The notes below the pieces were generated by a model. The model was not told where the DNA came from. It did not search any database and was given only the letters and a program-made list of their open reading frames with translations. This document shows, piece after piece, positions 192 to 19,592 of a stretch of DNA of 54,597 nucleotides; the stretch's first letter is position 1, and each line of letters begins with the position of its first letter. The stretch is from the IMG/VR virus record IMGVR_UViG_3300026097_000012, positions 72,953-127,549 of that record; one strand, 5' to 3'. The stretch is from a virus. Lineage: Duplodnaviria; Heunggongvirae; Uroviricota; Caudoviricetes. Position numbers and translations under genes: made by a program.

Positions 192-1450
192 TTTTTACCT
201 AGAGATCCCGTATTTTCCCGGGATTTTTTTTTTCCTCTGGAGAAATTGCTTTTCTAGTACCCGGGCCCTGTGGAAAATTTTTGGCCCGTGGGAAATTCCC
301 GTTTTTTGCCCGTGGCCTTTATATTCACAAAATTCAACTTGACTTCGACCTATCCGCCCATATAGTGATCCTGGTGACCTGTTCTATATAGGCCCCAGGG
401 GGCCCTGAGGGCACCTGGAGGGCCCCTGGTGGCCCCTAGGGCTGCCTGAGTCTGAGAGCCCCACCTCTGGGTACTATATACCCTGCCTGAGAGGTCCACC
501 TTGGCCAGGGGTAGTCTATGGCCGCGTCAGATAGGGATCCCAGCTAGGGGTACCTCGCCCGGTAAGCTAGAAGCTAAAACTAAAAAGTTCGGTTTTGCTA
601 AGATAAGCGGTTTCTCGCTCTTGGATCTGAGCGAACCTTAAGACTTATAAGCCGTATGTAAAGATCCACTCCATATGCAGTTGACCAGGGTTGTGATGTA
701 GAGGTGGGAATTCCTCAAGTAGAGCTTTATAAAGAGTTATAACCTTAACGCTTTGGATCTAGAATTCATCGGTCGCTCAGTGACCTGATGGGGAAAAGGG
801 GAGATAAAGATCCAAAGCTTAAAATCCGTCCCTTTCGACTATTGACCAGGGTTAAAAGGTAGGGACTACATTATCTAAAAACTTAAGATACTCTTATACT
901 CTTCCCTTAGAAGAATACAGTTCCTAGCTCGGATTAGAAAAATAGTAAGTATTCCACCAGGAGCAAGGAAGAAAAAAACAACCTGAATGCTACTACTTTC
1001 TTTTTAGGCCGGATAGGTATAAAAAGTAAGATTTAGGAAACTCCATATTATACGCATTTATGGATTCTCGCTCTGTGACCTTGGTGAAGATTACCGTCCC
1101 TATTGGGCAACCCGGCCAATTGATTTAAAAACACTAAGTTTTTGTGAAAACAATGATCTTTCGCTCGGATGCTAAAATGTGAGAATTCTTTGTAGCATTA
1201 GCACTCTTCGCTCCGTCACCTAGTGGGCTGTAGAGCGAAAGGGATTACATAGCTATTGAATCTAACCGCTCAACTGTTGACCAGGGTTGACGAGTAGAAA
1301 CCCCATTTCTTACTTTTTAAACCTAAACGCGAAGCTCAACTGGATCTAGAAGTCATCGGTCGCTCTGTAAGAAGAGTTCTACTATTGGGAGAAGGGAGCG
1401 AGGCCAGATAGAGACATACACAGACATACCTGATAGAAGCTGGCTCCACA
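192..1450. repeat. Non-coding repeat-rich island with GC-rich core
   Basis: No ORF >=60 aa; GC-rich 390-560; TTGACCAGGGTT at 681, 842, 1277; GGATCTAGAA(T/G)TCATCGGTCGCTC at 755 and 1342; many TCGCTC hexamers. Confidence 0.8.
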
Positions 1451-1508
1451 TTAATTTTAAAATAATGGATTAAATATTTTTTTAATCTAAATAAAATGCC
1501 TATATTTA
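1396..1508 (+). promoter_or_regulatory. Dyad element + TATATTTA early-type promoter
   Basis: GAGCGA 1396, TGGCTC ends 1446; TATATTTA at 1501. Confidence 0.75.
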
Positions 1509-1533
1509 TAGTATAATAATAACAAACAATAAC

Positions 1534-1635
1534 ATGGAACTTAAACAGATAGGATTAGAATGTTTTGATTTTAATAATATTAAAATAGATACAACAGAGG
1601 CTGCACAAGATGCAATGACTCAGTCAGCCAACTAA
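1534..1635 (+). CDS. 33-aa small ORF
   Basis: ATG after A-rich leader, directly downstream of promoter 1501. Confidence 0.4.
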   Translation: MELKQIGLECFDFNNIKIDTTEAAQDAMTQSAN

Positions 1636-1643
1636 AGATAACC

Positions 1644-1741
1644 GTGAGAGCGCCGTAGGTCCTTGAGACAGAAGAGACGGACCCATTCGTAAGATGGGCG
1701 GCATCATGCCTTAGTAGGTTTGAATCCTACCTCTCCAACCA
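1644..1741 (+). tRNA. Atypical tRNA-Tyr(GTA)-like gene with expanded D-loop
   Basis: D stem CCGT/ACGG, anticodon stem CCCAT/ATGGG with loop TCGTAAG, variable stem GGCA/TGCC, T arm GTAGG-TTTGAAT-CCTAC, 3' CTCTCCA-A-CCA; several canonical positions deviate. Confidence 0.7.
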
Positions 1742-1745
1742 ATTG

Positions 1746-1779
1746 AAAAAGGAACACTCGAAATGGGGGTTCCTTTTTT
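1746..1779 (+). terminator. Intrinsic terminator
   Basis: GGAAC..GTTCC hairpin + T run. Confidence 0.7.
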
Positions 1780-1806
1780 AGTATAGTAAGATTTAAATAA
1801 AAAACT

Positions 1807-2253
1807 ATGTGGGCAATATTTGATTTAGACGGTACTCTCGCCGATATTGAAGAGCGAAGAAGGTTAGCTTCTAAAGGCGACGGTAAGATTAATTGGGGCA
1901 TTTTCTTTAATCCAGAAAATATAAAGCTAGATAAACCTCTACTTAAAACTATATTTCTTTTACAGACTTTAAGATCTCAAGGTCTAGGAATCGCGATACT
2001 TAGCGGTAGAGGCGAAGAGACTCGCGCTGCGACAGAACACTGGTTAAAGGAAAACGGCGTAGAATACGATAAGCTAATAATGCGTCCAGTTCAGAACTAC
2101 GAACCTGACGACGAGCTCAAGCGAACATGGCTCAATGCTGAGTTTCCAAACCGTGACCAGATACTTTGCGTGTTTGATGATCGGGACAAGGTCGTGGCGA
2201 TGTGGAGGAGGGAAGGATTGCTCTGTTGTCAAGTAGCACCTGGAGATTTTTAG
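1807..2253 (+). CDS. HAD-family polynucleotide 3'-phosphatase (T4 PseT C-terminal-domain-like)
   Basis: DLDGT motif I, SGR motif II, FDDR..VVAMWRREG..CCQVAPGDF end. Confidence 0.88.
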   Translation: MWAIFDLDGTLADIEERRRLASKGDGKINWGIFFNPENIKLDKPLLKTIFLLQTLRSQGLGIAILSGRGEETRAATEHWLKENGVEYDKLIMRPVQNYEPDDELKRTWLNAEFPNRDQILCVFDDRDKVVAMWRREGLLCCQVAPGDF

Positions 2254-2303
2254 TAGCCGAACCGCGTACATCCAGGCTATGTCCGGTGATGTCTTAATCC
2301 CCT

Positions 2304-2362
2304 TGGCTCTCCACTTTATTTTAGCTAATTGGTAAAAGATATAATAATAATTGTTATATTTA
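2304..2362 (+). promoter_or_regulatory. TATATTTA promoter with dyad right half-site only
   Basis: TGGCTC ends 2309 (46 bp upstream); TATATTTA at 2355. Confidence 0.65.
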
Positions 2363-2384
2363 TAGTATAACTTAAACAAACGAT

Positions 2385-2636
2385 ATGGAAAGGGGACTTG
2401 CTGGATATTGGATATCTACTGATAATTTAAAGTTCAATGCTATGACCAATACTTTTGTTGGAGAAGCTTCTGAACTAGGAATTATAGAGTTTGACAAATC
2501 ATACGTACTCTGGAATCCTAAAACAAACGGTTCTTCTTACCTTGAATTTGATAAGTTCGATAAGAACGGAGAAGAGATATCAGGAGCTCGATACTCCTCT
2601 CATCAAGGTTACAAACTATTAATTATAAACGATTAG
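2385..2636 (+). CDS. hypothetical protein
   Basis: First ORF after promoter 2355. Confidence 0.75.
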   Translation: MERGLAGYWISTDNLKFNAMTNTFVGEASELGIIEFDKSYVLWNPKTNGSSYLEFDKFDKNGEEISGARYSSHQGYKLLIIND

Positions 2637-2743
2637 TATGAAAAGTCTAAAAGAAAAACGAGAAATAGTAAAGAGGGCGAAGATCATAAGACATACGTTT
2701 CTAAGTAGATCAAAGTTCTCAGCCATTAAATACATTTTAAAAT

Positions 2744-2977
2744 ATGACAAGTAAAGTAATAGCAGTAAAGTGGAAGACCGGAAAAGAATGTATCGGTATT
2801 GTTATAGTTGATACTGGATTCGGAATCAAAGGCTACATCAAGAAGGTAGATGGCATGGACCAAGACAGAGACATTACGCAAGTAGCAGAATGGGGAACGG
2901 GCTTGGACTCTTCAGAGATAGAGGGTTTCTTCCCCCATCGATCAGAAGAATTTAGATCAATAGGATATTCAAACTAA
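2744..2977 (+). CDS. hypothetical protein
   Basis: ORF in + operon. Confidence 0.7.
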   Translation: MTSKVIAVKWKTGKECIGIVIVDTGFGIKGYIKKVDGMDQDRDITQVAEWGTGLDSSEIEGFFPHRSEEFRSIGYSN

Positions 2978-2982
2978 AAAAC

Positions 2983-3255
2983 ATGAAGAACTTACAATTA
3001 TTAAAAGACAAGTTAAACTCAGTGCGAGATCGCAACCGTGAAGCTAAAGTAGGAGAGTCTCTTGTTTGTCCTTCATGTGGAACTGGATTTAAGAAGAGGA
3101 GTTATCAACAGGTATTTTGTAAATCTAAAACCGGTACTAAATGTAAAGACAGATTTTGGAATACAGTAGACGAGAGTAAGCGTAACAACCAAGACAGACT
3201 AAGTTTATCGCGCGTCGTTTGGTTATTTGAAAAAGAAATGGAAGATTTAATTTAA
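2983..3255 (+). CDS. Cys-rich (Zn-finger-like) hypothetical protein
   Basis: CPSC..C..C pattern. Confidence 0.7.
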   Translation: MKNLQLLKDKLNSVRDRNREAKVGESLVCPSCGTGFKKRSYQQVFCKSKTGTKCKDRFWNTVDESKRNNQDRLSLSRVVWLFEKEMEDLI

Positions 3256-3265
3256 AATAGGAATC

Positions 3266-3544
3266 ATGGGAAAATACGTAAATGTAAATTTGAACGGAAG
3301 GCCTCTAAATGCTAGAGGTAAAGCTTCTAATCTCGTAATGTCTGGTGCAGAACGCATTGAAGAACCAGAAAGCTTAGCACAACATCCAGGTAAGGCGGTT
3401 CTTTGTGTAGTAGAAAACGGACCTTTTGATGCGGCGGCTTGGGCTTACAGTCAGGACGAACTCAATTGCTTCAAACGCGAAGACGGCCGGCTTAAGTCTT
3501 GGTTGACAGTAGACGAATCTGTAATTGAATCTTTAATCGATTAA
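3266..3544 (+). CDS. hypothetical protein
   Basis: ORF before terminator. Confidence 0.75.
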   Translation: MGKYVNVNLNGRPLNARGKASNLVMSGAERIEEPESLAQHPGKAVLCVVENGPFDAAAWAYSQDELNCFKREDGRLKSWLTVDESVIESLID

Positions 3545-3570
3545 ATCCAGGGTAAACTTAATCTGATAAG

Positions 3571-3595
3571 AGGCCTGCAAACGCGGGCCTTTTTT
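3571..3595 (+). terminator. Intrinsic terminator
   Basis: AGGCCTGC-AAAC-GCGGGCCT + T run. Confidence 0.8.
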
Positions 3596-3610
3596 ATGCT
3601 ATAAGCTCTG

Positions 3611-3803
3611 GAGCCAGTGAGCTTTGTAAGCTACGCTATGCAACTGGCTCAAGCACAGTCGAGCCAAGTCAGAGACAAGGAGTTCGCTCTAAGCTCCCGA
3701 GAGCCAGTGGTCTCTGTTAAGAGGCGGTGCTCATTGGCCCTAAGAAAATTTGAAAAATAAATGGCGAAATATTTTAAGTACCACAATATTATTCTTATAT
3801 TTA
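3611..3803 (+). promoter_or_regulatory. Three tandem dyads + promoter
   Basis: Dyads 3611-3650, 3661-3689, 3701-3740; TATATTTA at 3796. Confidence 0.8.
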
Positions 3804-3825
3804 ACTATAACTTAAAACAAACACA

Positions 3826-4170
3826 ATGATCGTTAAATTAAATGACCGAATAATTAATCTAGACTTAGTAAAAGAAGTCTCGGAAATTACCGCGTATCTT
3901 GTTAATGAAAAACGAGATGGAAACAGTGGATATATCCATATCATACGAACCAAAAAGGATATTGTTAGATGGTTGGATATTTCAAATACTGGAACAGAGA
4001 GTCAACAAGAGTATGAAGTAATCTTTGGATTTCAAATCTTTTATTTGGAAGAGAAATATCCAAAGCACGTAAAGGTTTCTCTCCACCAAAGCGAAGCGAG
4101 AAAGGCGAGAGAGGCGTTCGCAACCCTTTTAAATAATAATAACCCTGTAATACACGAAGTAAAATGGTAA
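3826..4170 (+). CDS. hypothetical protein
   Basis: First ORF after promoter. Confidence 0.75.
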   Translation: MIVKLNDRIINLDLVKEVSEITAYLVNEKRDGNSGYIHIIRTKKDIVRWLDISNTGTESQQEYEVIFGFQIFYLEEKYPKHVKVSLHQSEARKAREAFATLLNNNNPVIHEVKW

Positions 4171-4343
4171 GAGTAATATGTTTAGGAATCGGATTGAATA
4201 TGTTCTTTCAAGAGTGGGTATCAATAATCGACGCTCCACCACAACCAAAGGAAATCTTTCATAAACCTGGCTTTCAGAACCGAGTTTATACAAAGGTAAA
4301 AGGCTATAAAGTTCCGCACTTAACTCGAATGCAGAACAAATAG
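4164..4343 (+). CDS. 59-aa hypothetical protein
   Basis: Start overlaps end of upstream gene; ends before terminator. Confidence 0.5.
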   Translation: MVRVICLGIGLNMFFQEWVSIIDAPPQPKEIFHKPGFQNRVYTKVKGYKVPHLTRMQNK

Positions 4344-4362
4344 ACCTAGTAAGTCTCTCTTT

Positions 4363-4388
4363 AAACCCCCTCTATTGGGGGTTTTTTT
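4363..4388 (+). terminator. Intrinsic terminator
   Basis: AAACCCCC..GGGGGTTT + T run. Confidence 0.8.
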
Positions 4389-4395
4389 GTTTCCG

Positions 4396-4508
4396 GAGTA
4401 AGAAAAGAAGAAAGGAATCTGGCAAGAGGCGGGAGAAGTTCGCTCCTCATAAATTTGAAAAATAATTAATAAAAAGTTTTTTATATCCATCAATTATTCT
4501 TATATTTA
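4396..4508 (+). promoter_or_regulatory. Dyad (50 bp variant) + promoter
   Basis: TTCGCTC ends 4445; TATATTTA at 4501. Confidence 0.75.
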
Positions 4509-4532
4509 ACTATAACTTAAAACAAACAGATT

Positions 4533-4730
4533 ATGAATTGCGACAGATGTCACACAGAATCACCCCGCTTTACGAAAATGAGTTTCTTCAATATGGACAC
4601 AATATGTCCTGAGTGTGAAGCTAAGGAAAAAGCACATCCACAGTATGAGGCGGCGAGAAAGAAAGAAAGAGAAGAATGTTTAAAGGGTAATATGAATTAT
4701 CCTGGAATCGGAAAACCTGCTGACCTATGA
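4533..4730 (+). CDS. Zn-ribbon-like hypothetical protein
   Basis: CDRC..CPEC. Confidence 0.75.
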   Translation: MNCDRCHTESPRFTKMSFFNMDTICPECEAKEKAHPQYEAARKKEREECLKGNMNYPGIGKPADL

Positions 4731-5035
4731 TTAAGAGCAAAGACGAATTAAAGAGGAGACCTATTGAGATAGATCTAACGGGTCCAGATGGTAATGTATT
4801 CTATTTAATGGCTACAGCAAAGCGGTTATCGCGCCAGCTTTACGACTTCGTAACAGAAGAGCTTGAAAATGCTCGAGCAGTAGATGAATCATTAAAGCTG
4901 TTATATGACGGAGACTTTAAAACTCCTGAAAACATGGGAGACTGGATCGTAGAAGAAATGATGAAGTCTGATTACGAACATGCAGTTCAAGTTTTTGATA
5001 AATATTTTGGCGCAGTTGTAACACTGTACCGTTAA
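4727..5035 (+). CDS. conserved phage hypothetical protein
   Basis: IDLTGPDGNVFYLM motif; ATGA overlap. Confidence 0.75.
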   Translation: MIKSKDELKRRPIEIDLTGPDGNVFYLMATAKRLSRQLYDFVTEELENARAVDESLKLLYDGDFKTPENMGDWIVEEMMKSDYEHAVQVFDKYFGAVVTLYR

Positions 5036-5048
5036 CTACGGAGTAACT

Positions 5049-5306
5049 ATGGAAGAAGTAATAAACTTAATATCCGACCGAGACGAGATACTCGAGGACA
5101 AGGTGGCCGAGTTTCAGAAGAAACTAATTGACATACATCCTAAATTTAAAGTCGGACAGGTAATTCTTTTTTGGGGAGGATATAATAACGATATCCGATA
5201 CCGATCTGAAATAATTGGATTTAACGAGGACGGAGAAATCTACGTTATGTGGGATTGTTATTGGTTCCCTATTAGAGATGAAGAATCAAGAGAAATAGAA
5301 TTATAA
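5049..5306 (+). CDS. hypothetical protein
   Basis: ORF before terminator. Confidence 0.7.
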   Translation: MEEVINLISDRDEILEDKVAEFQKKLIDIHPKFKVGQVILFWGGYNNDIRYRSEIIGFNEDGEIYVMWDCYWFPIRDEESREIEL

Positions 5307-5329
5307 ACGGGTTTGTTTAAGTTAGATGG

Positions 5330-5352
5330 AACCTCAACTTCGGTTGGGGTTT
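5330..5352 (+). terminator. Intrinsic terminator
   Basis: AACCTCAAC-TTCG-GTTGGGGTT. Confidence 0.75.
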
Positions 5353-5361
5353 CGTCGTTTA

Positions 5362-5539
5362 GAGCGGTAAGCTTAGCGACGTGCCCGAGGAGGGTTGGCT
5401 CAGAAAGCTTTGACTACGGAGTTCACCGTGCACGCCGGGACCAGTGGGATCCCGGTACACAAGAGCACGGCTGGCCCTTAGAGAAATGCACAAAAATATT
5501 CTCAGGATTTTTTATAATGAAGAATAATTCTTATATTTA
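5362..5539 (+). promoter_or_regulatory. Dyad-decamer-dyad + promoter
   Basis: Dyads 5362-5401 and 5438-5477, ACTACGGAGT 5413; TATATTTA at 5532. Confidence 0.75.
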
Positions 5540-5561
5540 ACTATAACTTAAAACAAACACG

Positions 5562-5771
5562 ATGAGTAATTTTATAGATCACATCAAATTAGCAACAGAG
5601 AATATAGTTCTATGTAGTGGTATATGTTCTAAGAAAGAGCATTACGAGTACGCTGAGAAGATGGAAAAGATGCTTAAGCATCAGTTAAAAGAGGAGTTAA
5701 CTGAAATTGTAAATGATCACGAGATGATGGAAGAAAGACTTTGTGAATTTATTCAAAAACTAGGAGTATGA
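5562..5771 (+). CDS. hypothetical protein
   Basis: First ORF after promoter. Confidence 0.7.
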   Translation: MSNFIDHIKLATENIVLCSGICSKKEHYEYAEKMEKMLKHQLKEELTEIVNDHEMMEERLCEFIQKLGV

Positions 5772-5932
5772 AAAAGAAACCGACAATGACCAAAGCTCAA
5801 TTAACTCAGAGAGTTAATGAAGAAGCAAAGAGAATGCGAGAAGACATTAAAAGACAAGGAGGCAATCTTACCTTTGCTGAATGCAAGAAGGAGGCTCGTA
5901 AAGTATTCATGGAAGAATTCGAAATAGTTTAA
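5768..5932 (+). CDS. 54-aa basic hypothetical protein
   Basis: ATGA overlap with upstream gene. Confidence 0.55.
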   Translation: MKKKPTMTKAQLTQRVNEEAKRMREDIKRQGGNLTFAECKKEARKVFMEEFEIV

Positions 5933-6013
5933 GTCTAGGACACCCAATTCTCTTAGACATTTAATCTTACTTCAAAGAGATTATCTTATCATAGAGGGAC
6001 CCGAGTTAATCAC

Positions 6014-6044
6014 AAGAGGAATCTAAACAGGTTCCTCTTTTTTT
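6014..6044 (+). terminator. Intrinsic terminator
   Basis: AAGAGGAA..TTCCTCTT + T run. Confidence 0.75.
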
Positions 6045-6057
6045 ATCTCTACTTATC

Positions 6058-6209
6058 GAGCAAGTCGATAGGTTTCAAGAGAGAGGAGAGCTCGCTCGTC
6101 TCTGTTTGAGCCAGTGTGCTTTCGATCCTAACCTAGAGACCTCGACCTAGAGTATTTCAAAAATAAGTATAATTATATTTTAGGTTATCAATTATTATTC
6201 TTATATTTA
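6058..6209 (+). promoter_or_regulatory. Two tandem dyads + promoter
   Basis: 6058-6097 and 6108-6147; TATATTTA at 6202. Confidence 0.75.
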
Positions 6210-6232
6210 ATTATAACTTAAAACAAACAGAT

Positions 6233-6388
6233 ATGTATTCATTATATTGTAGCTACTACGACAAAGAGTTTAATTCCCTTGAGGAGCTAATTGAGGACGT
6301 GACCATCAATGGCATGGACCCAAACTATGAGGTGACCAGAGATGGCAAGGGTATTGGAGAGAACGCCATAGATTTTATTCAATTTTAA
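6233..6388 (+). CDS. 51-aa acidic hypothetical protein
   Basis: First ORF after promoter 6202. Confidence 0.6.
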   Translation: MYSLYCSYYDKEFNSLEELIEDVTINGMDPNYEVTRDGKGIGENAIDFIQF

Positions 6389-6398
6389 AAATAATATT

Positions 6399-6611
6399 AT
6401 GGATAAGCCAAAACTATACGTACTTATGTCTTATGATGAAGATGGTACCGACACATCTATATTCTTAGACAAAGATGAAGCGTTAGAAGAATTCGAAAGA
6501 GCAAGTGGAGACGACAAGGTCGTAGGAGAAGTAGAAGAATACAAATCCTTCGGACAAGGAGCATGGGGAGATTGGTATGGAATCAAAATAATTAAGAAAT
6601 CTGATGGTTAA
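6399..6611 (+). CDS. acidic hypothetical protein
   Basis: ORF in operon. Confidence 0.7.
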   Translation: MDKPKLYVLMSYDEDGTDTSIFLDKDEALEEFERASGDDKVVGEVEEYKSFGQGAWGDWYGIKIIKKSDG

Positions 6612-6855
6612 GTGGGATAAGAAAATAGAAGACAGGCACATGAAGGGAAATACTCCCTTCGGTGAGGTCTGGATCCGGTTTGACCGGGAAGGTAAAGCAA
6701 TCGGTTTATATACCTGTTTTGGCGATACTCAGAAATGGATTCCGGACGAAGAGTGGATGCAAGATCTCGAAGGAGCCCAGCTCAGATTAGAGGAACTTAC
6801 AGAAGATACCAAACGTTTACGTGATTGGGGTGAGGGACTACGGAGTAAAGATTAA
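6604..6855 (+). CDS. hypothetical protein
   Basis: ORF in operon. Confidence 0.65.
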   Translation: MVKWDKKIEDRHMKGNTPFGEVWIRFDREGKAIGLYTCFGDTQKWIPDEEWMQDLEGAQLRLEELTEDTKRLRDWGEGLRSKD

Positions 6856-6919
6856 ATTACATTATATTCTAAAACTGAGACCAGAATTACCTGTATAAGA
6901 AATAAATAATACTATAGAC

Positions 6920-7120
6920 ATGGAAAGCCAAATACATTCAATAATCGATCAATGGAAAGAAGAAACTGGTAATCAGAAGTCTATCTCGTCTGACTCGATT
7001 AAGGTTAAGTATGCAGACCGTGAGGTAGGGATATATACTATTTATCTTATGTTAAATCCTACAGTAAGGATTAAAGCATTGCTGAATGGCCCTGCTTGGA
7101 AAATCATAGAATTAAAATGA
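6920..7120 (+). CDS. hypothetical protein
   Basis: ORF in operon. Confidence 0.65.
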   Translation: MESQIHSIIDQWKEETGNQKSISSDSIKVKYADREVGIYTIYLMLNPTVRIKALLNGPAWKIIELK

Positions 7121-7410: not shown

Positions 7411-7436
7411 TATTTTTTTATTCCAAATAAGTTTCT

Positions 7437-7444: not shown

Positions 7445-7466
7445 CTTTATAACTTAAAACAAGGCA

Positions 7467-12160: not shown

Positions 12161-12183
12161 CTTATAACTTAAAACAAAGGATT

Positions 12184-12366: not shown

Positions 12367-13022
12367 AGATTACAAAGAAGGACTGGGACAGAATGCTAGA
12401 TTTAATACTCACTAATAATGAAGGAGAGACCGTTGCCAAGTCGATAAAGGATCCAAACAAGGCCGCTGCTAGATTTATATGTGGCCTTAAATTAATGGGA
12501 CTAGACATTGATTACAGAAGCACATGGAACGATCCAGTATATGTAGAAGAATTTTCATGTTTCGGTAATAGAGCTATCGAACTAGGAGGACCTGATTTCA
12601 TCGTCCATATTCTGAATGAGTTTAGAAAAACAGAGATCCCCTTGTATGTCAGAGAGAAGAGAGAAAAGTACATCGGAAAGAATATGAATAATGGATATGT
12701 ATCATTCATATCTAAGGCGATTATTGATGCAGGGTTTGACATTAACTATCTAAACAGCGGAGGATATGCAATGACCTCAGCAGGAAAATACGCAATGGAA
12801 CGTAACGGAAGAAAGTGGACCATTGGATATAAAACAGAAATCCAAATCGGAGAGGAGAAATATACATTCAACTTCGATGCTATTACATGTGAAGGAGGAG
12901 GACCAACGAGTTATGTAGTGCATGAAACAAGCTCTAGCATATTTGATTCAATGATATGGTCTGAGGTTGGTAAGACATCATTTAAATCTCAATTACTCAA
13001 GCAACTAAAAGAAGCTGCGTAA
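12363..13022 (+). CDS. hypothetical protein
   Basis: 219-aa ORF. Confidence 0.8.
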   Translation: MKITKKDWDRMLDLILTNNEGETVAKSIKDPNKAAARFICGLKLMGLDIDYRSTWNDPVYVEEFSCFGNRAIELGGPDFIVHILNEFRKTEIPLYVREKREKYIGKNMNNGYVSFISKAIIDAGFDINYLNSGGYAMTSAGKYAMERNGRKWTIGYKTEIQIGEEKYTFNFDAITCEGGGPTSYVVHETSSSIFDSMIWSEVGKTSFKSQLLKQLKEAA

Positions 13023-13046
13023 AAACAGTGACTACGGAGTAATAAG

Positions 13047-13070
13047 AACCTCAGCAATGCTGGGGTTTTT
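13047..13070 (+). terminator. Intrinsic terminator
   Basis: AACCTCAGC-AAT-GCTGGGGTT + T. Confidence 0.8.
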
Positions 13071-13084
13071 AGTTCCGATAGCGG

Positions 13085-13174
13085 GAGCCAATCTCCTCCG
13101 TGCTTGTCACTCGACATTTAATTTTAAATAAATGTCAATTTATTTTTTAGATACACAAATTATTCTTATATTTA
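13085..13174 (+). promoter_or_regulatory. Short dyad variant + promoter
   Basis: GAGCCAA 13085..TCACTC 13112; TATATTTA at 13167. Confidence 0.65.
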
Positions 13175-13197
13175 CTTATAACTTAAAAAAACAGATT

Positions 13198-13497
13198 ATG
13201 TGGATTCAATCAGTAATTAATGCAATGTCTCAAGTCGACGAAAACAAACTTAAAAGAGTAATATCACTTAACCCCGATGGGGATTGGAGTGAAGAGGAAT
13301 GGAAAGAGTATAACTATGTAGCAGGCGCAGTAGTTGAACCATTTACTTTTCCAGGATGTGAATCAGAAGAAGAGGATTTATTCTATGAAAAATCAGATGA
13401 GTTCGGACCAGACTTTATTAAGTCTATTACAGATGGTCTTGATAACCGAGACGAGTGGAATAAATTAATTGATTTAGTAGACGTAATAGGATATTAA
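13198..13497 (+). CDS. highly acidic hypothetical protein (start reassigned to 13198)
   Basis: D/E-rich; first ATG after leader. Confidence 0.7.
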   Translation: MWIQSVINAMSQVDENKLKRVISLNPDGDWSEEEWKEYNYVAGAVVEPFTFPGCESEEEDLFYEKSDEFGPDFIKSITDGLDNRDEWNKLIDLVDVIGY

Positions 13498-13522
13498 GAT
13501 GGAGAAGAAAACATCAGTAACG

Positions 13523-13547
13523 AGACCGGCGAAAGTCGGTCTTTTTT
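13523..13547 (+). terminator. Intrinsic terminator
   Basis: AGACCGGC-GAAA-GTCGGTCT + T. Confidence 0.8.
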
Positions 13548-13560
13548 GTTTCTGATCCTC

Positions 13561-13663
13561 GAGTAAGCTGTGTCCAGATTTAAGGCGATCCCGCTGGCTC
13601 CACATAATATGTAAAACTTTTTTAAAAAGATTGCAATGGATTAAAAGATAATTCGTATATTTA
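13561..13663 (+). promoter_or_regulatory. Dyad + promoter
   Basis: 13561-13600; TATATTTA at 13656. Confidence 0.8.
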
Positions 13664-13736
13664 CTTATAACATTAAAACAAACAGTATGATGACTCCTTT
13701 AAATTATACGCTAATTAACACATTAAAAGAGCAACT

Positions 13737-14066
13737 ATGAAAAAGACATTATACCATGGAACCTCAATTAAGAATGTGGAATCCATCTTGGAGACGGGCC
13801 TGAAGAAGTCAATCTTTGAACAGGCTGTATACCTCACAGAGTCGGCAGAGTCCGCTGCACGTTGGACCGGATTTAAACTACAAACAATGGGAGAAGAAAC
13901 TCTTGCAGTAATTGAGGTTACAGTTGATGAAGACCGGCTTTCACCTGGGTGTGACCATTCTCCCCTAATGCAGAGTATGTTTGGAGCCGGAGAAAGTATC
14001 TTACACGAAGGGGATATAACACCAGAAGAAATAATACGTGTAATATACTTTGGTAAAAAAGTATAA
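13737..14066 (+). CDS. ADP-ribosyltransferase-fold protein (Tpt1/DarT-like)
   Basis: LYHGT..SILETGL..AVYLT. Confidence 0.65.
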   Translation: MKKTLYHGTSIKNVESILETGLKKSIFEQAVYLTESAESAARWTGFKLQTMGEETLAVIEVTVDEDRLSPGCDHSPLMQSMFGAGESILHEGDITPEEIIRVIYFGKKV

Positions 14067-14198
14067 TATAATTCCCTAATAAAAATGAAGAAGCTAATAT
14101 AGAAATAAGCTGCCCTAACCAGTGGGTGTAACTGATAAACAGGTTGATAGGCATTTCGCGATAAACCTATCAATGTAGAGATAACACTTTCAATTTTT

Positions 14199-14225
14199 AC
14201 CCAGTCAGAAATGACTGGGTTTTTT
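14199..14225 (+). terminator. Intrinsic terminator
   Basis: ACCCAGTCA-GAAA-TGACTGGGT + T. Confidence 0.85.
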
Positions 14226-14239
14226 GTTTTTGAGGATCA

Positions 14240-14341
14240 GAGCAAGATCAGTCGAAGAAGAACGCGATCCCGCTGGCTCTGATTTATTTTCAAATCAGTT
14301 GTGAAATAATTTTACGGTATGAAATAAATTTCTTATATTTA
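14240..14341 (+). promoter_or_regulatory. Dyad + promoter
   Basis: 14240-14279; TATATTTA at 14334. Confidence 0.8.
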
Positions 14342-14367
14342 TAGTATAATATATAAAATGATAAAAC

Positions 14368-14907
14368 ATGGGATTAGATATAACAGCAATTAGCGGAGTA
14401 GTAACTAAGAATACAGATCCAATTGCATATGACTTTCACTCTCTACTTGATGCAGAGACAAATACGTTTTATGTTAATCCTGATTTTCCAGAACATGGGG
14501 CTGAGTTTGAAGTTAGCAATGGTGAAGTGGAATATATCAAATCGGACGAAGCAGAGGAATTCAACTTTAGAGTTGGCTCATATAGTACGTATAACAAGAT
14601 TCGTAACTTAATCTGTTTGGCAATTCATGGTGTAAAAGTAGAAAACGCATGGGATAATCCAGGTAAGTATTCTACAATGGCTCTCTGGGATTTACTTAAC
14701 TTTTCAGATTGTGAAGGAGTTATTGATTCTGTAACGAGTGAAAGTATTTTAACAGACCTTAAAGAGAACCGAGAAAAATTCGTTAACTATATAAAACAAG
14801 ATACAGATATTGGAGACATGGATACGGAACACTACATTGATTCGTATAATAGCTTTATTAAATGCTTTGAATTAGGAGCAGACAGTGGAGTTGTAATATT
14901 TGGATAA
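14368..14907 (+). CDS. conserved phage hypothetical protein
   Basis: MGLDI start; LLNFSDCEGVI motif. Confidence 0.8.
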   Translation: MGLDITAISGVVTKNTDPIAYDFHSLLDAETNTFYVNPDFPEHGAEFEVSNGEVEYIKSDEAEEFNFRVGSYSTYNKIRNLICLAIHGVKVENAWDNPGKYSTMALWDLLNFSDCEGVIDSVTSESILTDLKENREKFVNYIKQDTDIGDMDTEHYIDSYNSFIKCFELGADSGVVIFG

Positions 14908-14925
14908 AAACTAAACGAACAAAAT

Positions 14926-15177
14926 ATGACAGGACAAGATGTTGATTCACTAATAAGATACGGAGCTACTGACCGAGTACGCAAACATATTAAAAAACTA
15001 GGTATGAAGTCTAGAATGCGTCTGCTTAGAGACTGTGTACCTAACGTTAATGCTACTACGGAGTCACTTAAATTCTTTAAAGAAAACTTCTCAAAGGAAA
15101 TAGGAGCTCTAATGATGGCGGAACAAGACATAGATAAAGCCGTGGCCTTATATAATGAGGCAAAAAAATTAAAGTAA
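14926..15177 (+). CDS. hypothetical protein
   Basis: ORF in operon. Confidence 0.7.
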   Translation: MTGQDVDSLIRYGATDRVRKHIKKLGMKSRMRLLRDCVPNVNATTESLKFFKENFSKEIGALMMAEQDIDKAVALYNEAKKLK

Positions 15178-15491
15178 TGAAAAATACTCTTACTTATTTC
15201 GATGAAATACTTCAAGCAGATTTTAAAATTCCTGCATTCGAAGAAGTAACTCCTTCTATTTTACGAGAAGAATACGATGATGAGGTTTATAGATCCATCT
15301 ATGCCTCGCTTGCAAGATTAGAAGTTAACCCTGATTGGGCTAACATTCCTTGTTTTTCTATGAATGGAGTAATTTTTGAAATAGACAGAGGAGACCACAT
15401 CGAACATTTAAATAATTGTTTAGACTATTTTACAAAGAGCGAAGAGTACGAGATCTGCTCCCACCTAGTTCGGCTCAAGAATACTTTATAA
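15177..15491 (+). CDS. UVR-motif-containing protein
   Basis: SEEYEICSHLVRLKNTL. Confidence 0.7.
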   Translation: MKNTLTYFDEILQADFKIPAFEEVTPSILREEYDDEVYRSIYASLARLEVNPDWANIPCFSMNGVIFEIDRGDHIEHLNNCLDYFTKSEEYEICSHLVRLKNTL

Positions 15492-15538
15492 ATTATTTCC
15501 CCTAGATTTTTTTAATCCAAATAAGTTTCTTATATTTA
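15437..15538 (+). promoter_or_regulatory. Dyad embedded in CDS + promoter
   Basis: GAGCGAAG 15437..TCGGCTC 15476 (40 bp); TATATTTA at 15531. Confidence 0.8.
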
Positions 15539-15556
15539 ACTATATAATTAAACAAC

Positions 15557-15868
15557 ATGGATAAAGAAAGATATAAATTAGTAGAAAGACAATGGGAAGG
15601 CTGGAATTTTCAGTCTGTTCAAGAAACTTCTAGAGATACTATGGTAAGTTACTATAGAGTAGAGGACAATAACGGAATCAGAGAAGGACTTGAAGTTTAC
15701 ACTGGAGAAAACTATGTAGTTGGATCCAAAAAGAGAAGCTATTCACGTCACTATCCAATCACAAACAAACATTCTATTTTAGAACTACCAGTAGATAGAA
15801 GAGAAAAGGTCGTTGAGATGCGAGCTGCTCTAAAAAGAATGTTAGGAAATAAACTTTTAAAGATATAA
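15557..15868 (+). CDS. hypothetical protein
   Basis: First ORF after promoter. Confidence 0.75.
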   Translation: MDKERYKLVERQWEGWNFQSVQETSRDTMVSYYRVEDNNGIREGLEVYTGENYVVGSKKRSYSRHYPITNKHSILELPVDRREKVVEMRAALKRMLGNKLLKI

Positions 15869-15870
15869 TT

Positions 15871-16074
15871 ATGGGACATAGAAGAAGAGGAGATAATACA
15901 ATTAGAGGATTTTTAACCTCTATCTTATATTTTGCCCTAATAATGGTTGTAATATACGTATTACTCGGATGGGCATATGCTAAAGAATCAGGAGAATCAT
16001 TTAACATTGTTTATGAATTTGGAAAGGCAGTTAAACTATTTTGGACTCATTTAAAAGATGGATGGAATAGTTAA
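15871..16074 (+). CDS. single-TM membrane protein
   Basis: Hydrophobic segment. Confidence 0.65.
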   Translation: MGHRRRGDNTIRGFLTSILYFALIMVVIYVLLGWAYAKESGESFNIVYEFGKAVKLFWTHLKDGWNS

Positions 16075-16138
16075 AACTTAACCTCTTCTTGTAGTATAAG
16101 ATAGTAATGTATGTTATTACTTATTTCCCCCTCACAAT

Positions 16139-16159
16139 GGCTCGCTTCGGCGGGCTTTT
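16139..16159 (+). terminator. Intrinsic terminator
   Basis: GGCTCGC-TTCG-GCGGGCT + T. Confidence 0.75.
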
Positions 16160-16175
16160 ATTGTTTCTAGAGGCG

Positions 16176-16278
16176 GAGCCAAGCTAATCCGATCGCATGC
16201 CAACAGGAGTTCGCTCCGTAATAAATAAAAAATAAATGTGAAATAATTTTTTTTATTCAAATTAATCGCTTATATTTA
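16176..16278 (+). promoter_or_regulatory. Dyad + promoter
   Basis: 16176-16216; TATATTTA at 16271. Confidence 0.8.
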
Positions 16279-16306
16279 CTATATAATCTTAAACAAATAA
16301 TATCCA

Positions 16307-16465
16307 ATGAAAAAAGGAAAATCTACAAAATCTTTAAACTGCAAATTCTGTGGTGATGAAGTAAAGAACGTAGGACACTATACGGTTAAAGTAACTTGCT
16401 GGAAATGTGTTAACCTATCAATGCAAACTACCGTTCCACTTGCCGATGAAGGGGACGATGACTAA
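16307..16465 (+). CDS. 52-aa Zn-ribbon protein
   Basis: CKFC..CWKC; first ORF after promoter. Confidence 0.6.
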   Translation: MKKGKSTKSLNCKFCGDEVKNVGHYTVKVTCWKCVNLSMQTTVPLADEGDDD

Positions 16466-16511
16466 TAAATGATCTAAAAATAAATTACTTAAAAACAAAC
16501 TAAAAAGTACT

Positions 16512-17240
16512 ATGAAAAATTACAAGCAAAAATCAGAGAGTTTAGATAGATATTTCAAATCTATCCAAGACCTCAACCCATTAGCTAAATCCGAAGAAAT
16601 CGAATTAGCGAAAAAAGCAAAAGCTGGAGATACTCGAGCTATGAACAAGCTAGTTGAGCACAACTTAAAAATTGTGGTAACAATAGCTAATAAGAACGTA
16701 GGTCGTGGAATCGATGTGGACGACTTGATCCAACAAGGAAACTTAGGATTATTCGAAGCGGCTCAACGCTTCGATCCTGAAGCAGGTGTTAGATTCTCTA
16801 CATTCGCAGGAACTAGAGTCCTAAAGATGATGAATCAATTAATTGACACGTGTGGGAGAGTCGTACGAATCCCCGTAAACCAGGAATATAAAAGATATCT
16901 TGCTTTGAAAAAAGGTGAAGAGGTTGAAAACCTTAATCCTGTAAAGATTGATGACTTTGTTCAAGATGACAAAGGTAAGTCTAAAGCAGATTCTGGAATA
17001 CTATCGGTGGGGCCATCGATTGAAGAAGAGCACAACATTGAAGACTTCAAAGTTCGTACGACAACGCTTCTATCCGGTCTAAAAGAACGAGACAGAAAGA
17101 TTATAAAGCTTTACTTTGGAATCGACTGTCCTGATGCTTTGCCTACTAAGGAAATCGCGGAAGAGGTAAACTTAACTCAAATCAGAGTATGTCAGATTAT
17201 CAACTCTGCGAAGAAGCAACTTCAATTAGCCATCCAGTAA
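16512..17240 (+). CDS. RNA polymerase sigma factor, RpoD/sigma-70 family
   Basis: Region 1.2 (LDRYF..I), region 2 (DLIQQGNLGLFEAAQRFDP..RFSTFA), region 4 HTH (EIAEEVNLTQIRVCQI). Confidence 0.92.
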   Translation: MKNYKQKSESLDRYFKSIQDLNPLAKSEEIELAKKAKAGDTRAMNKLVEHNLKIVVTIANKNVGRGIDVDDLIQQGNLGLFEAAQRFDPEAGVRFSTFAGTRVLKMMNQLIDTCGRVVRIPVNQEYKRYLALKKGEEVENLNPVKIDDFVQDDKGKSKADSGILSVGPSIEEEHNIEDFKVRTTTLLSGLKERDRKIIKLYFGIDCPDALPTKEIAEEVNLTQIRVCQIINSAKKQLQLAIQ

Positions 17241-17250
17241 ATCATAGATC

Positions 17251-17526
17251 ATGAGAGAGAAAGTATTAATATTCGACGGGAAGGACTTACATGAAATTGG
17301 CGCTGAATACTTCTTCCAACATCCGGTTATAAGAGACCTGAAGAAAGATGATGTATTACATATATACCAACACACTATGTTTCTCAATTATTCAGCAGAA
17401 CAAAATGAGGAGGATAAAATCAAAATGGAAAAGGGTTCCAATATCCTAGAACAAATGGTTTTAGATATGTACGGCAAAAAGGAAGGTCAACCTCATATTG
17501 ATCGAGTAAATTACATGATTACATGA
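17251..17526 (+). CDS. hypothetical protein
   Basis: ORF in operon. Confidence 0.7.
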   Translation: MREKVLIFDGKDLHEIGAEYFFQHPVIRDLKKDDVLHIYQHTMFLNYSAEQNEEDKIKMEKGSNILEQMVLDMYGKKEGQPHIDRVNYMIT

Positions 17527-17981
17527 AAAAGCTATTAGCAATATCTATCCTCGGAATACTGTGTTACTACGGAGTAACGTATTATAACTACATGAACAAT
17601 GGAGTTACGTATGTTGATCCTAACTTAGAGACCTTGGTCGAAGAGTGGAAGTCTGAAGTGGAAGAGCACGGCATCGACCTGAAAGATAGGTATCATAGAA
17701 TCCGAAGGATAGAGATTGTTAGTGACTACGGAGTAAAGAACCTGGCAGGTCAATGTAACTACACAACAAGAGAGATAGGAATAGGTAAAGAACAAGTATT
17801 AAAAGGAAGGTATACTACAATGACAGTACTTTGGCACGAGCTCGGACATTTTGTATTCGAACTCGAGCATCAAGATAGAATCTCTATCATGAATTCCGAA
17901 ACCTTAAGTGAAGAGTATTACAGAAAGCATTGGGAAATACTGAAAGTCAATTACATAAAACAAATCAAAGATGGAATATAG
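17523..17981 (+). CDS. membrane-anchored zincin (matrixin-like) metallopeptidase
   Basis: N-terminal TM; HELGHFVFELEH..IM. Confidence 0.75.
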   Translation: MKKLLAISILGILCYYGVTYYNYMNNGVTYVDPNLETLVEEWKSEVEEHGIDLKDRYHRIRRIEIVSDYGVKNLAGQCNYTTREIGIGKEQVLKGRYTTMTVLWHELGHFVFELEHQDRISIMNSETLSEEYYRKHWEILKVNYIKQIKDGI

Positions 17982-18282
17982 TTATAACAGCGAAGAGATA
18001 CTAAAGAAGTTAGAAGATCTAAAGAACCGAGATGTAGAAGCATTTACCGATTTAGTATTGAAAGCTTTCCGTATCGCGCCAGACCATATTCTTGAAGACC
18101 CACATCCTTCGGCCAATAAGATTAGAGCTTTGAAAGCTATGTTAGAATATTTAGAGACGACTGAACGATATGAAGACTGTGCTTTTATAAAAGGAATCAT
18201 GGATAACATAGAAACCAAAAAGGAAGACATTACTCTATGTGGAGTGTGTGGAGGAGATGCCTCAATTTGCGACGGATGTTAA
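17971..18282 (+). CDS. UVR-motif-containing protein
   Basis: TERYEDCAFIKGIMDNI; C-terminal CGVC..CDGC. Confidence 0.7.
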   Translation: MEYSYNSEEILKKLEDLKNRDVEAFTDLVLKAFRIAPDHILEDPHPSANKIRALKAMLEYLETTERYEDCAFIKGIMDNIETKKEDITLCGVCGGDASICDGC

Positions 18283-18283
18283 T

Positions 18284-18547
18284 ATGAATACCAAGAAAGA
18301 GACATATCTTATTATATCTGAAGCGACAGACCCTCGTCTGTCGTTCGGTCAGGCTATTAGAGCTACAGTTGCAGTAGCAAGTAATTTTAGAAAGGCATAC
18401 GACTTGGCTCTAAGCATGGGCGATATTACTGATCCGAGCCTCGGATATCGCGCCGCCCTTGAACGAACTAACGGAGAGCTGGCATTCCAATTGGAAGAAA
18501 AAGACGGCTCAAAGAAAGTTACAATTGCTCTCATAAAAAAGTACTGA
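18284..18547 (+). CDS. hypothetical protein (start reassigned to 18284)
   Basis: ATG 1 nt after upstream stop. Confidence 0.65.
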   Translation: MNTKKETYLIISEATDPRLSFGQAIRATVAVASNFRKAYDLALSMGDITDPSLGYRAALERTNGELAFQLEEKDGSKKVTIALIKKY

Positions 18548-18575
18548 TTAATTTTTTTAACCCAAGAATTTTACG

Positions 18576-18583
18576 TATATTTA
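18576..18583 (+). promoter_or_regulatory. TATATTTA promoter
   Basis: T-tract about 17 bp upstream; A-rich leader. Confidence 0.65.
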
Positions 18584-18611
18584 TATTATAAACCAATAAA
18601 CAGCTAATATT

Positions 18612-18860
18612 ATGAAAAAGATAATTTTAACAATAGCATTAATGGTAATAGCAATCTCATGTGATATGTCGACTGAGCCTGATGTATCATACGATGAGAT
18701 TCATAATTGCCTACCAATTCCTAGTGATGTGCCACATGTGTATAAGAGTGGTTCCCCTATCGAATGGGATTGTGAAATGAATTCGTATTACAAAAACGGA
18801 GATCTCATTTTACATTACGATAGCGATAGCAACCTCATCATGATTGAAAAGATCTGGTAA
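18612..18860 (+). CDS. putative lipoprotein
   Basis: Signal peptide ending AISC. Confidence 0.7.
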   Translation: MKKIILTIALMVIAISCDMSTEPDVSYDEIHNCLPIPSDVPHVYKSGSPIEWDCEMNSYYKNGDLILHYDSDSNLIMIEKIW

Positions 18861-19042
18861 TGGATAAGGTAGAACGAATACTTAATCTGATATCTGAGAA
18901 ATCGAGAGGATTACAGGAAGAACTGGACTCAATGTCTCCTATCTCTTTAAATGAAGATGCGAAGGCGGAGTTATTTACTCAAATTTCAACACTGGATGAA
19001 TTATACAATGAGGTAAAACTAATACAGAAACAAGATGATTAA
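18860..19042 (+). CDS. coiled-coil hypothetical protein
   Basis: TAATG coupling. Confidence 0.65.
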   Translation: MDKVERILNLISEKSRGLQEELDSMSPISLNEDAKAELFTQISTLDELYNEVKLIQKQDD

Positions 19043-19376
19043 ATTTATAAAGACATACTTTAAAGAAAAGGCGGAATCTAACCTGATCCAAGAGCAAGAA
19101 GCCAAGGATAAGGCAAAAGCTAATGCTGCTCGAAAGAAGAAAACCTTTGTAAACGAAATCAAAGCTCTTAGACTTATAGCAATTAATAATGCAAGGTATA
19201 TAAGAGCAAGTATTAACACCTTAAACGGATCAGTGAATCATGCTAAAGGATCAAGTGCAGCGGAGACCAAAAAAAAGAGAGCTGTTCTTCGTGAAAGATT
19301 AGAATGGCTCAAAAGTAAGAAGGACGAAGAGGAAGTAATGGTAGATTACTATAACTCTCTTTTAGGAAAAAATTAA
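19035..19376 (+). CDS. basic coiled-coil hypothetical protein
   Basis: ORF before terminator. Confidence 0.7.
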   Translation: MIKFIKTYFKEKAESNLIQEQEAKDKAKANAARKKKTFVNEIKALRLIAINNARYIRASINTLNGSVNHAKGSSAAETKKKRAVLRERLEWLKSKKDEEEVMVDYYNSLLGKN

Positions 19377-19401
19377 AGGAAATCATAGTTTAGTTTGTTT
19401 A

Positions 19402-19425
19402 GACCCTGCTTCGGCGGGGTTTTTT
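19402..19425 (+). terminator. Intrinsic terminator
   Basis: GACCCTGC-TTCG-GCGGGGTT + T. Confidence 0.8.
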
Positions 19426-19439
19426 GTCTCGGTAACTAG

Positions 19440-19592
19440 GAGCCAAGCTCAGAAATCACGTTAGCCTTGACACTCGCTCTGGATCTTGGAGCCAGTTACT
19501 ATAGGCATGCAAGACGTCGGCGTTGGCTCCCGATAAATGTTGAAAATTGTTGGGTAAATGTCGAAAGAATCCCAACATTATTAGTATATTTA
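19440..19592 (+). promoter_or_regulatory. Two tandem dyads + promoter
   Basis: 19440-19479 and 19489-19529; TATATTTA at 19585. Confidence 0.8.

Follow-up and report, generated by a model that had tools for sequence, protein, structure and literature searches.

A helically phased split dyad ahead of early promoters in a family of Bacteroidota phages, a candidate bipartite operator

Background

What could be the role of a short, interrupted inverted repeat that stands at a nearly constant distance ahead of one phage promoter after another? We addressed this question in a 54,597-nt stretch of viral DNA (positions 72,953 to 127,549 of IMG/VR record IMGVR_UViG_3300026097_000012; hereafter the window), which forms the terminal 54.6 kb of a 127.5-kb virus contig of 34% GC, corresponding to about half a genome by CheckV estimate. 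Among the proteins it encodes are a large terminase, a baseplate wedge protein and one that carries a type IX secretion system (T9SS) C-terminal sorting domain, and the contig can therefore be assigned to a tailed phage with a Bacteroidota host; the terminase and baseplate genes do not establish kinship with T4. Within a single 19-kb array of putative early promoters, the window repeatedly displays the split dyad GAGCNAR-N26/27-YTNGCTC. An earlier analysis, made from the letters of the window without database searches (the sequence-only reading), had interpreted it either as a phased operator spanning four helical turns or as a site for cassette shuffling.

Results

A split dyad at a fixed distance from early promoters

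The array consists of 21 co-directional copies of a promoter module, spanning 1.4-20.1 kb of the window and recognized by the sequence pattern cTTATATTTAnnTATAACTTAAAACAAACA..ATG (Table 1). Its core, TATATTTA, resembles TAnnTTTG, the -7 box of Bacteroidota, and the A-rich leader lacks a Shine-Dalgarno sequence. The genes of the array are mostly small ORFans, with about 30 of the 38 early open reading frames (ORFs) having no Pfam match, plus one gene for a sigma-70-family protein, the operon of which is driven by promoter box 16271. Based on the -7-like box, the A-rich leader, the small ORFans and the sigma-70-family gene, we accept the designation of these boxes as early promoters as a reasonable inference. 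A scan for the sigma-70 consensus revealed no enrichment (57 sites, as compared to 62.8 in shuffled sequences).

The dyad yields 11 exact matches in the window, while only 0.01 would be expected from 100 dinucleotide shuffles, and about 12 copies besides these are either degenerate or 28-29 or 50-51 bp in length; those at 3701, 5362, 5438, 6108, 9979, 13561 and 15437 carry one to three arm mismatches. The distance from left to right half-site is 40 bp in eight cases and 41 bp in three, with single cases at 29, 50 and 51 bp. The 40-41-bp element proposed in the sequence-only reading is therefore real, the remaining copies on its list being those with mismatched arms, and its description of outliers as lying about one helical turn off agrees with these three single cases and an additional 28-bp copy. 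A looser search of the whole contig returned 13 matches, 11 of which are located at 1396-19529 of the window, and dyads on the contig are restricted to the co-directional early-promoter array at 1.4-19.6 kb.

At 17 of the 21 plus-strand promoters, the right arm ends 53-55 nt ahead of the T of TATATTTA, very close to the 54-56 bp claimed earlier, although three of these promoters (6202, 7437 and 13167) have a degenerate arm. A right arm is found at 45 nt from promoters 2355, 9452 and 18576, and none is present at 20092. As also noted before, the spacing is preserved where the dyads at 9979-10018 and 15437-15476 reside within upstream coding sequences (ORFs 9837-10022 and 15177-15491), and the minus-strand site of the same promoter class, at 28957, has no dyad; neither do two plus-strand copies of the promoter elsewhere on the contig. 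One junction may hold one, two or three dyads with about 10 bp between copies, and tandem dyads occur at five junctions.

The interiors of the dyads have diverged to 28% pairwise identity, as compared to 25% after shuffling, in line with their earlier description as divergent and non-palindromic, although the interior of the 10784 copy is 81% identical to that of the 16176 copy. With 52% GC they stand out from the 34% GC genome and from the spacers leading to the promoter, which are AT-rich (21% GC). At 14 promoters with a 53-55-nt spacer between dyad and TATATTTA, spacers exhibit 49% pairwise identity, versus 33% in shuffled controls, and differ in length between copies by no more than 2 nt. 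Only the entire 40-bp element corresponds to the four helical turns suggested earlier; the centres of its half-sites are 33 bp apart, or about three turns. We also observed that GATC is enriched 2.8-fold in the zones from -115 to -50 of the promoters (14 observed versus 5.1 expected from composition), and has no consistent position in the dyad zone.

Helical phasing in related phages

A search with the promoter pattern uncovered at least 12 other IMG/VR contigs, 8-140 kb in length, which yielded 208 non-identical promoters. The GC-rich box upstream of them varies by clade: it is YTNGCTC in the present phage, CTCGCTCC in two other clades, and GnGTCTCynGA in the largest clade. We identified 137 boxes upstream of the 208 promoters, with the gaps to TATATTTA clustering at 35-36 (6), 44-46 (67) and 54-56 nt (51), which gives a Rayleigh R of 0.84 at a period of 10 bp. 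One-turn steps are seen even within single genomes, such as L032 (35 nt five times, 36 nt once, 45 nt five times and 55 nt once) and G003 (45-46 nt 14 times and 54-55 nt five times). In clades of the GCTC type, this box belongs to a dyad as its right arm, and the dyad measures 29 (8), 40-41 (15) or 50-51 bp (8) in total; the favourite length differs among the three clades. The fourth clade, GTCTC, has the promoter-proximal box alone, and no GAGAC partner could be found upstream of the GTCTC boxes at any preferred distance; GGATC..GATCC dyads accompany the GTCTC box in relatives.

Both distances, from arm to arm and from box to promoter, thus move by whole helical turns, as would be expected of protein contacts on one face of the DNA. 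Such changes are hard to reconcile with neutral descent or with a role in RNA, and the comparative evidence argues that the geometry is likely to be under selection. Of the checks suggested in the sequence-only reading, the scan of the contig found dyads confined to the early array, and that of relatives found boxes at phased distances from promoters, not at random ones.

In the three long contigs that were examined in full (G000, G001 and G003), the promoters also form a single co-directional array. In G001 (105.7-135.2 of 136.7 kb) and G003 (0.1-16.6 of 140.2 kb) the array is located at a contig end and is transcribed toward that end, which may mark the end of the genome that enters first. 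Other routes to relatives were less productive: megablast of an 8-kb part of the array found no match among 50,697 phage records, and a search of IMG/VR for related loci with the sigma factor as a query returned nothing. The nearest cultured phage, as judged by NAPRTase (61% identity), is Tenacibaculum phage PTm1, which does not carry the promoter motif (11+11 matches versus 19+18 in the reversed control). A literature search on Bacteroidota phages found no described equivalent of the element or of this phage family. To our knowledge, the family has no cultured relative, and almost nothing is known about the timing of early genes in Bacteroidota phages.

The dyad lies beyond terminators and probably acts at the DNA level

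The intergenic regions follow a common order, in which the stop codon is succeeded by an intrinsic terminator with a GC stem, a tetraloop and a T-run, then by 18-20 nt, one or more dyads, the 53-55-nt AT-rich spacer, and TATATTTA. A terminator is found directly upstream at 13-14 of the 17 dyad-bearing promoters, and the gap between the end of its stem and the start of the dyad measures 18-20 nt at seven of the eight terminators scanned. The element is therefore locked in position on both sides, and, since it starts only 18-20 nt after the terminator stem, terminated transcripts would not contain it. No T-run follows the dyad itself. A decamer, ACTACGGAGT, or its complement in TTTACTCCGTAGTA, recurs between the terminator and the dyad or box, in the window (5401-5438, 10741-10784, about 13040, and 11375) as well as in relatives (L012, L024 and L032); it is kept across the phage family, usually right behind the T-run of the terminator.

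Folding of the elements was compared with that of shuffled sequences, and most copies fold no better, the mean z being -0.55 when the whole element is considered and +0.24 when its interior is; a few copies, such as those at 3611 (z=-3.4) and 10702 (z=-4.0), fold well. We further examined covariation between the arms in 44 non-identical elements from three clades, exchanging right arms within the same clade as a control. Arm position 5 is complementary in 27 of the 44 elements, compared with 28.8 with shuffled partners, and only one of the six inner arm positions reached p=0.02, uncorrected for multiple comparisons. In the absence of excess complementarity, the arms behave as independent draws from one half-site consensus.

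Orientation and cassette exchange

The same 41-bp element was found in opposite orientations relative to the promoter: the copy in L041 (5332-5372) is flipped with respect to those in L023 (minus strand, promoter at 3175) and L051 (18-58), with 89-93% identity. The upstream terminator is identical and has the same orientation, while the flanking genes differ. This is consistent with an orientation-independent site; it is a single case, and an inversion mechanism is also possible.

The contigs L023 and L041 are about 97% identical and differ by several gene replacements, which allowed us to locate cassette boundaries in these relatives of the window's phage. Eight of the nine internal block boundaries fall at -49 to +44 of TATATTTA, and one lies in a terminator region; none of the nine is found in a dyad arm. 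Cassette exchange therefore runs through the promoter core and leader, and the dyad stays with the upstream cassette, contrary to the idea that it is itself the shuffling site. Promoter cassettes could thereby recombine in the promoter core with the operator geometry undisturbed. Judging from these comparisons, modular shuffling resembling that of the promoter early stem-loop (PeSL) cassettes of T4-type phages may take place in this family of Bacteroidota phages.

Table 1. Dyad copies, terminator stems and promoter boxes of the early array, in window coordinates
Feature	Position	Strand	Context
51-bp dyad GAGCGAG...CTGGCTC	1396..1446	.	54 nt before promoter box 1501
Lone right arm TTGGCTC, without left arm	2303..2309	+	45 nt before promoter box 2355
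40-bp dyad, distal copy of triple array	3611..3650	.	
29-bp dyad, middle copy of triple array	3661..3689	.	
40-bp dyad, right arm TTGGCCC	3701..3740	.	55 nt before promoter box 3796
50-bp dyad, left arm GAGTAAG	4396..4445	.	55 nt before promoter box 4501; terminator stem 4363-4384 upstream
40-bp dyad, distal copy	5362..5401	.	
Degenerate 40-bp dyad GGACCAG...CTGGCCC	5438..5477	.	54 nt before promoter box 5532
40-bp dyad, distal copy	6058..6097	.	Terminator stem 6014-6039, 19 nt upstream
40-bp dyad, degenerate right arm	6108..6147	.	54 nt before promoter box 6202
40-bp dyad, perfect arms	8190..8229	.	55 nt before promoter box 8285
50-bp dyad, nested 41-bp version ending 9397	9357..9406	.	Right arms 45 and 54 nt before promoter box 9452; terminator stem 9319-9338
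40-bp dyad, left arm GAACGAA	9979..10018	.	In ORF 9837-10022; 55 nt before promoter box 10074
40-bp dyad, distal copy	10702..10741	.	
41-bp dyad	10784..10824	.	53 nt before promoter box 10878
40-bp dyad	11387..11426	.	55 nt before promoter box 11482
40-bp dyad	12058..12097	.	55 nt before promoter box 12153; terminator stem 12016-12040
28-bp copy, degenerate right arm	13085..13112	.	54 nt before promoter box 13167
40-bp dyad, left arm GAGTAAG	13561..13600	.	55 nt before promoter box 13656; terminator stem 13522-13543
40-bp dyad	14240..14279	.	54 nt before promoter box 14334; terminator stem 14199-14220
40-bp dyad	15437..15476	.	In ORF 15177-15491; 54 nt before promoter box 15531
41-bp dyad	16176..16216	.	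54 nt before promoter box 16271; terminator stem 16139-16156
40-bp dyad, distal copy	19440..19479	.	Terminator stem 19401-19422
41-bp dyad	19489..19529	.	55 nt before promoter box 19585
21 co-directional putative promoters, cTTATATTTAnnTATAACTTAAAACAAACA..ATG	1501..20099	+	Sequence pattern
TATATTTA box starts, first half of array	1501, 2355, 3796, 4501, 5532, 6202, 7437, 8285, 9452, 10074, 10878	+	
TATATTTA box starts, second half of array	11482, 12153, 13167, 13656, 14334, 15531, 16271, 18576, 19585, 20092	+	

Other features of the array

The few early ORFs with family matches are located at 1807-2253, 8319-8573, 8575-9294 and 13737-14066, all on the plus strand. Matches among the early ORFs include weak, ADP-ribosyltransferase-like ones below the Pfam cut-offs (PARP, Tpt1 and DUF3990), which recall Alt/Mod of T4, as well as a PNKP-type phosphatase domain, a WYL_2 domain and an M28-peptidase-like protein. 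The sequence GTTTGTTTAAGTTAG, which precedes many terminators, is the reverse complement of the conserved 5′ leader AACTTAAAACAAAC; it is present in the 3′ untranslated regions ahead of the terminators upstream of promoters 5532, 8285, 9452, 10878 and 19585, so that the mRNAs of these cassettes would have complementary ends.

Discussion

A candidate bipartite operator

We propose that the dyad acts as a helically phased bipartite operator for a candidate regulatory protein acting on the polymerase at the adjacent promoter, and put the probability of this interpretation at about 0.5. The promoter-proximal arm (YTNGCTC, or CTCGCTCC or GTCTC in relatives) would represent an ancestral promoter-distal box, placed 35, 45 or 55 nt ahead of the -7-type box TATATTTA on a single face of the helix, at about -70 from the predicted transcription start and directly upstream of an AT-rich, UP-like tract. 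If transcription starts about 7 nt after TATATTTA, the centre of the proximal half-site would lie near -72 and that of the distal one near -105. In the present clade, the inverted second half-site is found two, three or four turns upstream of the first, and the interior between them is GC-rich but free in sequence. A sequence-specific protein could bind both arms on the same face and modulate RNA polymerase at the neighbouring promoter, so that about 20 early transcription units would be switched together. The effect could be either activation or recruitment of the class I type, or early shut-off in the manner of phi29 p4; a co-injected protein would permit action at time zero, while an early gene product would fit shut-off. 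Since the site is positioned 18-20 nt past the terminator stem, it is plausible that the bound protein may additionally insulate the promoter from read-through.

The binder is most likely encoded by the phage or co-injected, because the sequence of the box changes with the clade and the promoter core does not. A box that varies by clade on a common core points to a co-evolving factor encoded by the phage, and the regulator is probably phage-specific. Of the phased operator envisaged in the sequence-only reading, the phasing has held up, with its 35/45/55 and 29/40/51 steps and with neither covariation nor a stable fold, while our searches found no binding protein: a PHROGs search gave no candidate binder. 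The sequence-only reading had also named a dead recombinase, which corresponds to a resolvase-domain protein (23550-24143, minus strand) at the array boundary. Co-occurrence did not support it as a candidate, as it does not track the dyad: 41%-identical homologues are present in two GTCTC-type contigs, L084 and L085, which do not have the dyad, and none are found in G001 and G002, two fragments of the dyad type. Just downstream of the resolvase-domain gene, at 23449-23490, there is a 42-bp GAGC...GCTC dyad, the arms of which are extended.

Several observations weigh against the operator. No helix-turn-helix or other DNA-binding domain was detected by Pfam among the roughly 38 early ORFs, except for the sigma factor. 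Five promoters lack a full dyad, namely 7437, 13167 and 20092 in the array and two outside it on the same contig, and hence a promoter can do without the dyad. In the GTCTC clade a single asymmetric box suffices, and a binder that is strictly dimeric would leave this unexplained. Slippage within the AT-rich spacer could account for part of the 10-bp steps. The related contigs come from metagenomes, and some are close to one another, so that the counts are not fully independent. Finally, both the promoters and the transcription start are predictions from sequence.

Alternative explanations

The position just past the terminators would also fit a post-terminator insulator or roadblock, in which a dyad-bound protein mainly halts read-through polymerase and keeps it from occluding the promoter that follows. 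The TTF-I/Reb1 site that lies promoter-proximal in rDNA repeats is comparable. We list the insulator separately because promoter phasing would be secondary in it, and consider it unlikely as the main function. The constant gap behind the stems, the terminators directly upstream of most dyad-bearing promoters, the tandem dyads, and the retention of the dyad with the upstream cassette upon crossing over between close relatives are all as it would predict. However, the helical phase to the promoter is kept inside coding sequences without a terminator (9979, 15437 and several relatives), the 35/45/55 steps are measured to the promoter and not to the terminator, and the same candidate binder would still be needed. 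Alternatively, the dyad could be a functionless passenger of a terminator-promoter cassette that spread by duplication and homologous recombination, as PeSL cassettes do, with its geometry reflecting common descent. The array does resemble PeSL regions in having a terminator and a strong promoter between ORFan genes, the same terminator-dyad module is found beside different genes in L023 and L041, the block boundaries lie in promoter cores, and some interiors are common to copies, as in the 10784/16176 pair. Neutral decay, however, would blur spacing and arms alike, whereas here interiors have diverged to random and spacers to 49% identity while lengths hold within 1 bp or jump by whole turns, and the arms and GC-rich interiors are maintained against a much poorer GC background, making this explanation an improbable one as well.

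The cassette structure also brings to mind a recombination or inversion site, used for exchange of the integron attC or invertase type, perhaps via the serine-recombinase-like protein at 23550-24143. The placement of the element at the 3′ side of every cassette, with inverted terminal arms of 7 bp enclosing a variable interior, the 41-bp copy inverted between relatives, and the resolvase-domain protein at the array boundary with a dyad-like site beside its gene would fit such a role, which we nevertheless regard as very unlikely: close relatives cross over in promoter cores and not in the arms, there is no extended attC-type stem, recombinase homologues occur in dyad-less GTCTC-type phages and were not found in the dyad-bearing G001 (a fragment), and helical phasing to the promoter would not be expected. 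Highly improbable, in our judgement, is a hairpin in RNA or single-stranded DNA serving as a 3′ stabilizer, processing site or second terminator. The arms can form a 7-bp stem, a few copies, as mentioned above, fold well, and the element is located at the 3′ side of transcription units; yet most copies fold no better than shuffled sequences, the arms do not covary and are often mismatched at position 5, the element lies beyond canonical terminators without a U-run of its own, one clade keeps one arm only, and length steps of one DNA turn would be meaningless for RNA.

Implications

Returning to the operator interpretation, a more far-reaching version of it is possible, although doubtful: a single phage-specific protein would read a new type of operator, with two 7-bp half-sites two, three or four turns apart and 3.5, 4.5 or 5.5 turns from the -7 box, would switch the whole early regulon, and would double as a post-terminator insulator. 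If this were true, it would reveal an early regulon switch in a widespread uncultured family of Bacteroidota phages, and a bacterial-virus counterpart of the promoter-proximal terminator sites in eukaryotic rDNA. The 7-bp core, the three arm spacings and the three promoter distances predict which spacing mutants should work or fail, and the dyad could be used as bait for isolating the regulator.

Comparison with known systems

The dyad differs from intrinsic terminators and RNA hairpins, which combine a stable stem with a U-run and a better-than-shuffled fold, in having none of these features. REP/BIME palindromes are long and imperfect and form a stable hairpin at transcript 3′ ends, whereas the dyad has 7-bp arms, a non-palindromic interior, and a location beyond the terminators. 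The attC sites of integrons carry the core sites RYYYAAC and GTTRRRY and fold into a long imperfect hairpin, which a tyrosine integrase recognizes; the cassettes of integrons, moreover, have no promoters. The dyad is similar to attC in its conserved 7-bp inverted ends, its variable centre and its presence once per cassette at the 3′ side, but has different arms (GAGCNAR and YTNGCTC) and an unstructured, non-covarying interior, with exchange boundaries in promoter cores.

Functional parallels would be found among helix-phased operators, which the dyad resembles in its positioning on one face of the DNA (35, 45 and 55 nt; R=0.84) and in the independence of its half-sites. Class I CAP sites are centred at -61.5, -72.5, -82.5 and -92.5, and the dyad recognized by P2 Ogr and P4 Delta, TGT-N12-ACA, at -55. 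With these, the split dyad would share dependence on the helical face, position steps of whole turns, and dyad symmetry without a need for base-pairing; those sites, however, are compact (16-22 bp) and have a known protein, while a distance of 22, 33 or 44 bp separates the half-sites of the split dyad, and its binder is hypothetical. The phi29 p4 sites (A2c/A2b/A3) are inverted repeats centred about 70-80 bp upstream of the start, where p4 contacts polymerase to activate or repress, and regulators of this type hold polymerase through the alpha subunit. The predicted positions near -72 and -105 would be typical of class I activators or p4-type regulators, although p4 recognizes half-sites spaced by 15 bp, with an interior of constant length, and has only a few sites, in a phage of a Firmicute host, as opposed to a regulon of about 20. 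T4-like cyanophages reportedly have an upstream regulatory element at early genes, which, like the dyad, is said to be conserved clade-wide upstream of host-type early promoters; its sequence and host are different, and it is said to be a compact motif, as opposed to 7-bp arms with a free interior of 15, 26 or 37 bp.

At the level of the entire cassette, a precedent is provided by PeSLs, which are modules of a terminator and a strong early promoter residing between ORFan genes in a plastic region of T4-type phages, the close relatives among which differ by indels and replacements bounded by the modules (Arbiol et al. 2010, PMC2839356; Comeau et al. 2014, PMC4122927). The array shows three of the four PeSL features that we tested: terminators with a GC stem and a T-run lie upstream of most promoters, which is a property of the whole cassette and not of the dyad; small ORFan genes are concentrated in one 19-kb promoter array; and the replacements between L023 and L041 are bounded by promoter modules. 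The precedent cited in the sequence-only reading thus applies to the array, while the dyad is an extra component, absent from PeSLs: the PeSL stem-loop is the terminator, whereas here the terminator is followed by a separate, non-folding, helix-phased split dyad, the promoter is of the Bacteroidota type and not sigma-70, and crossovers occur in the promoter core. Since PeSLs have been published, the general design is already known; what is new, together with the comparative evidence for selection on it, is the geometry, with its short arms, free GC-rich interior, three arm spacings and three promoter distances.

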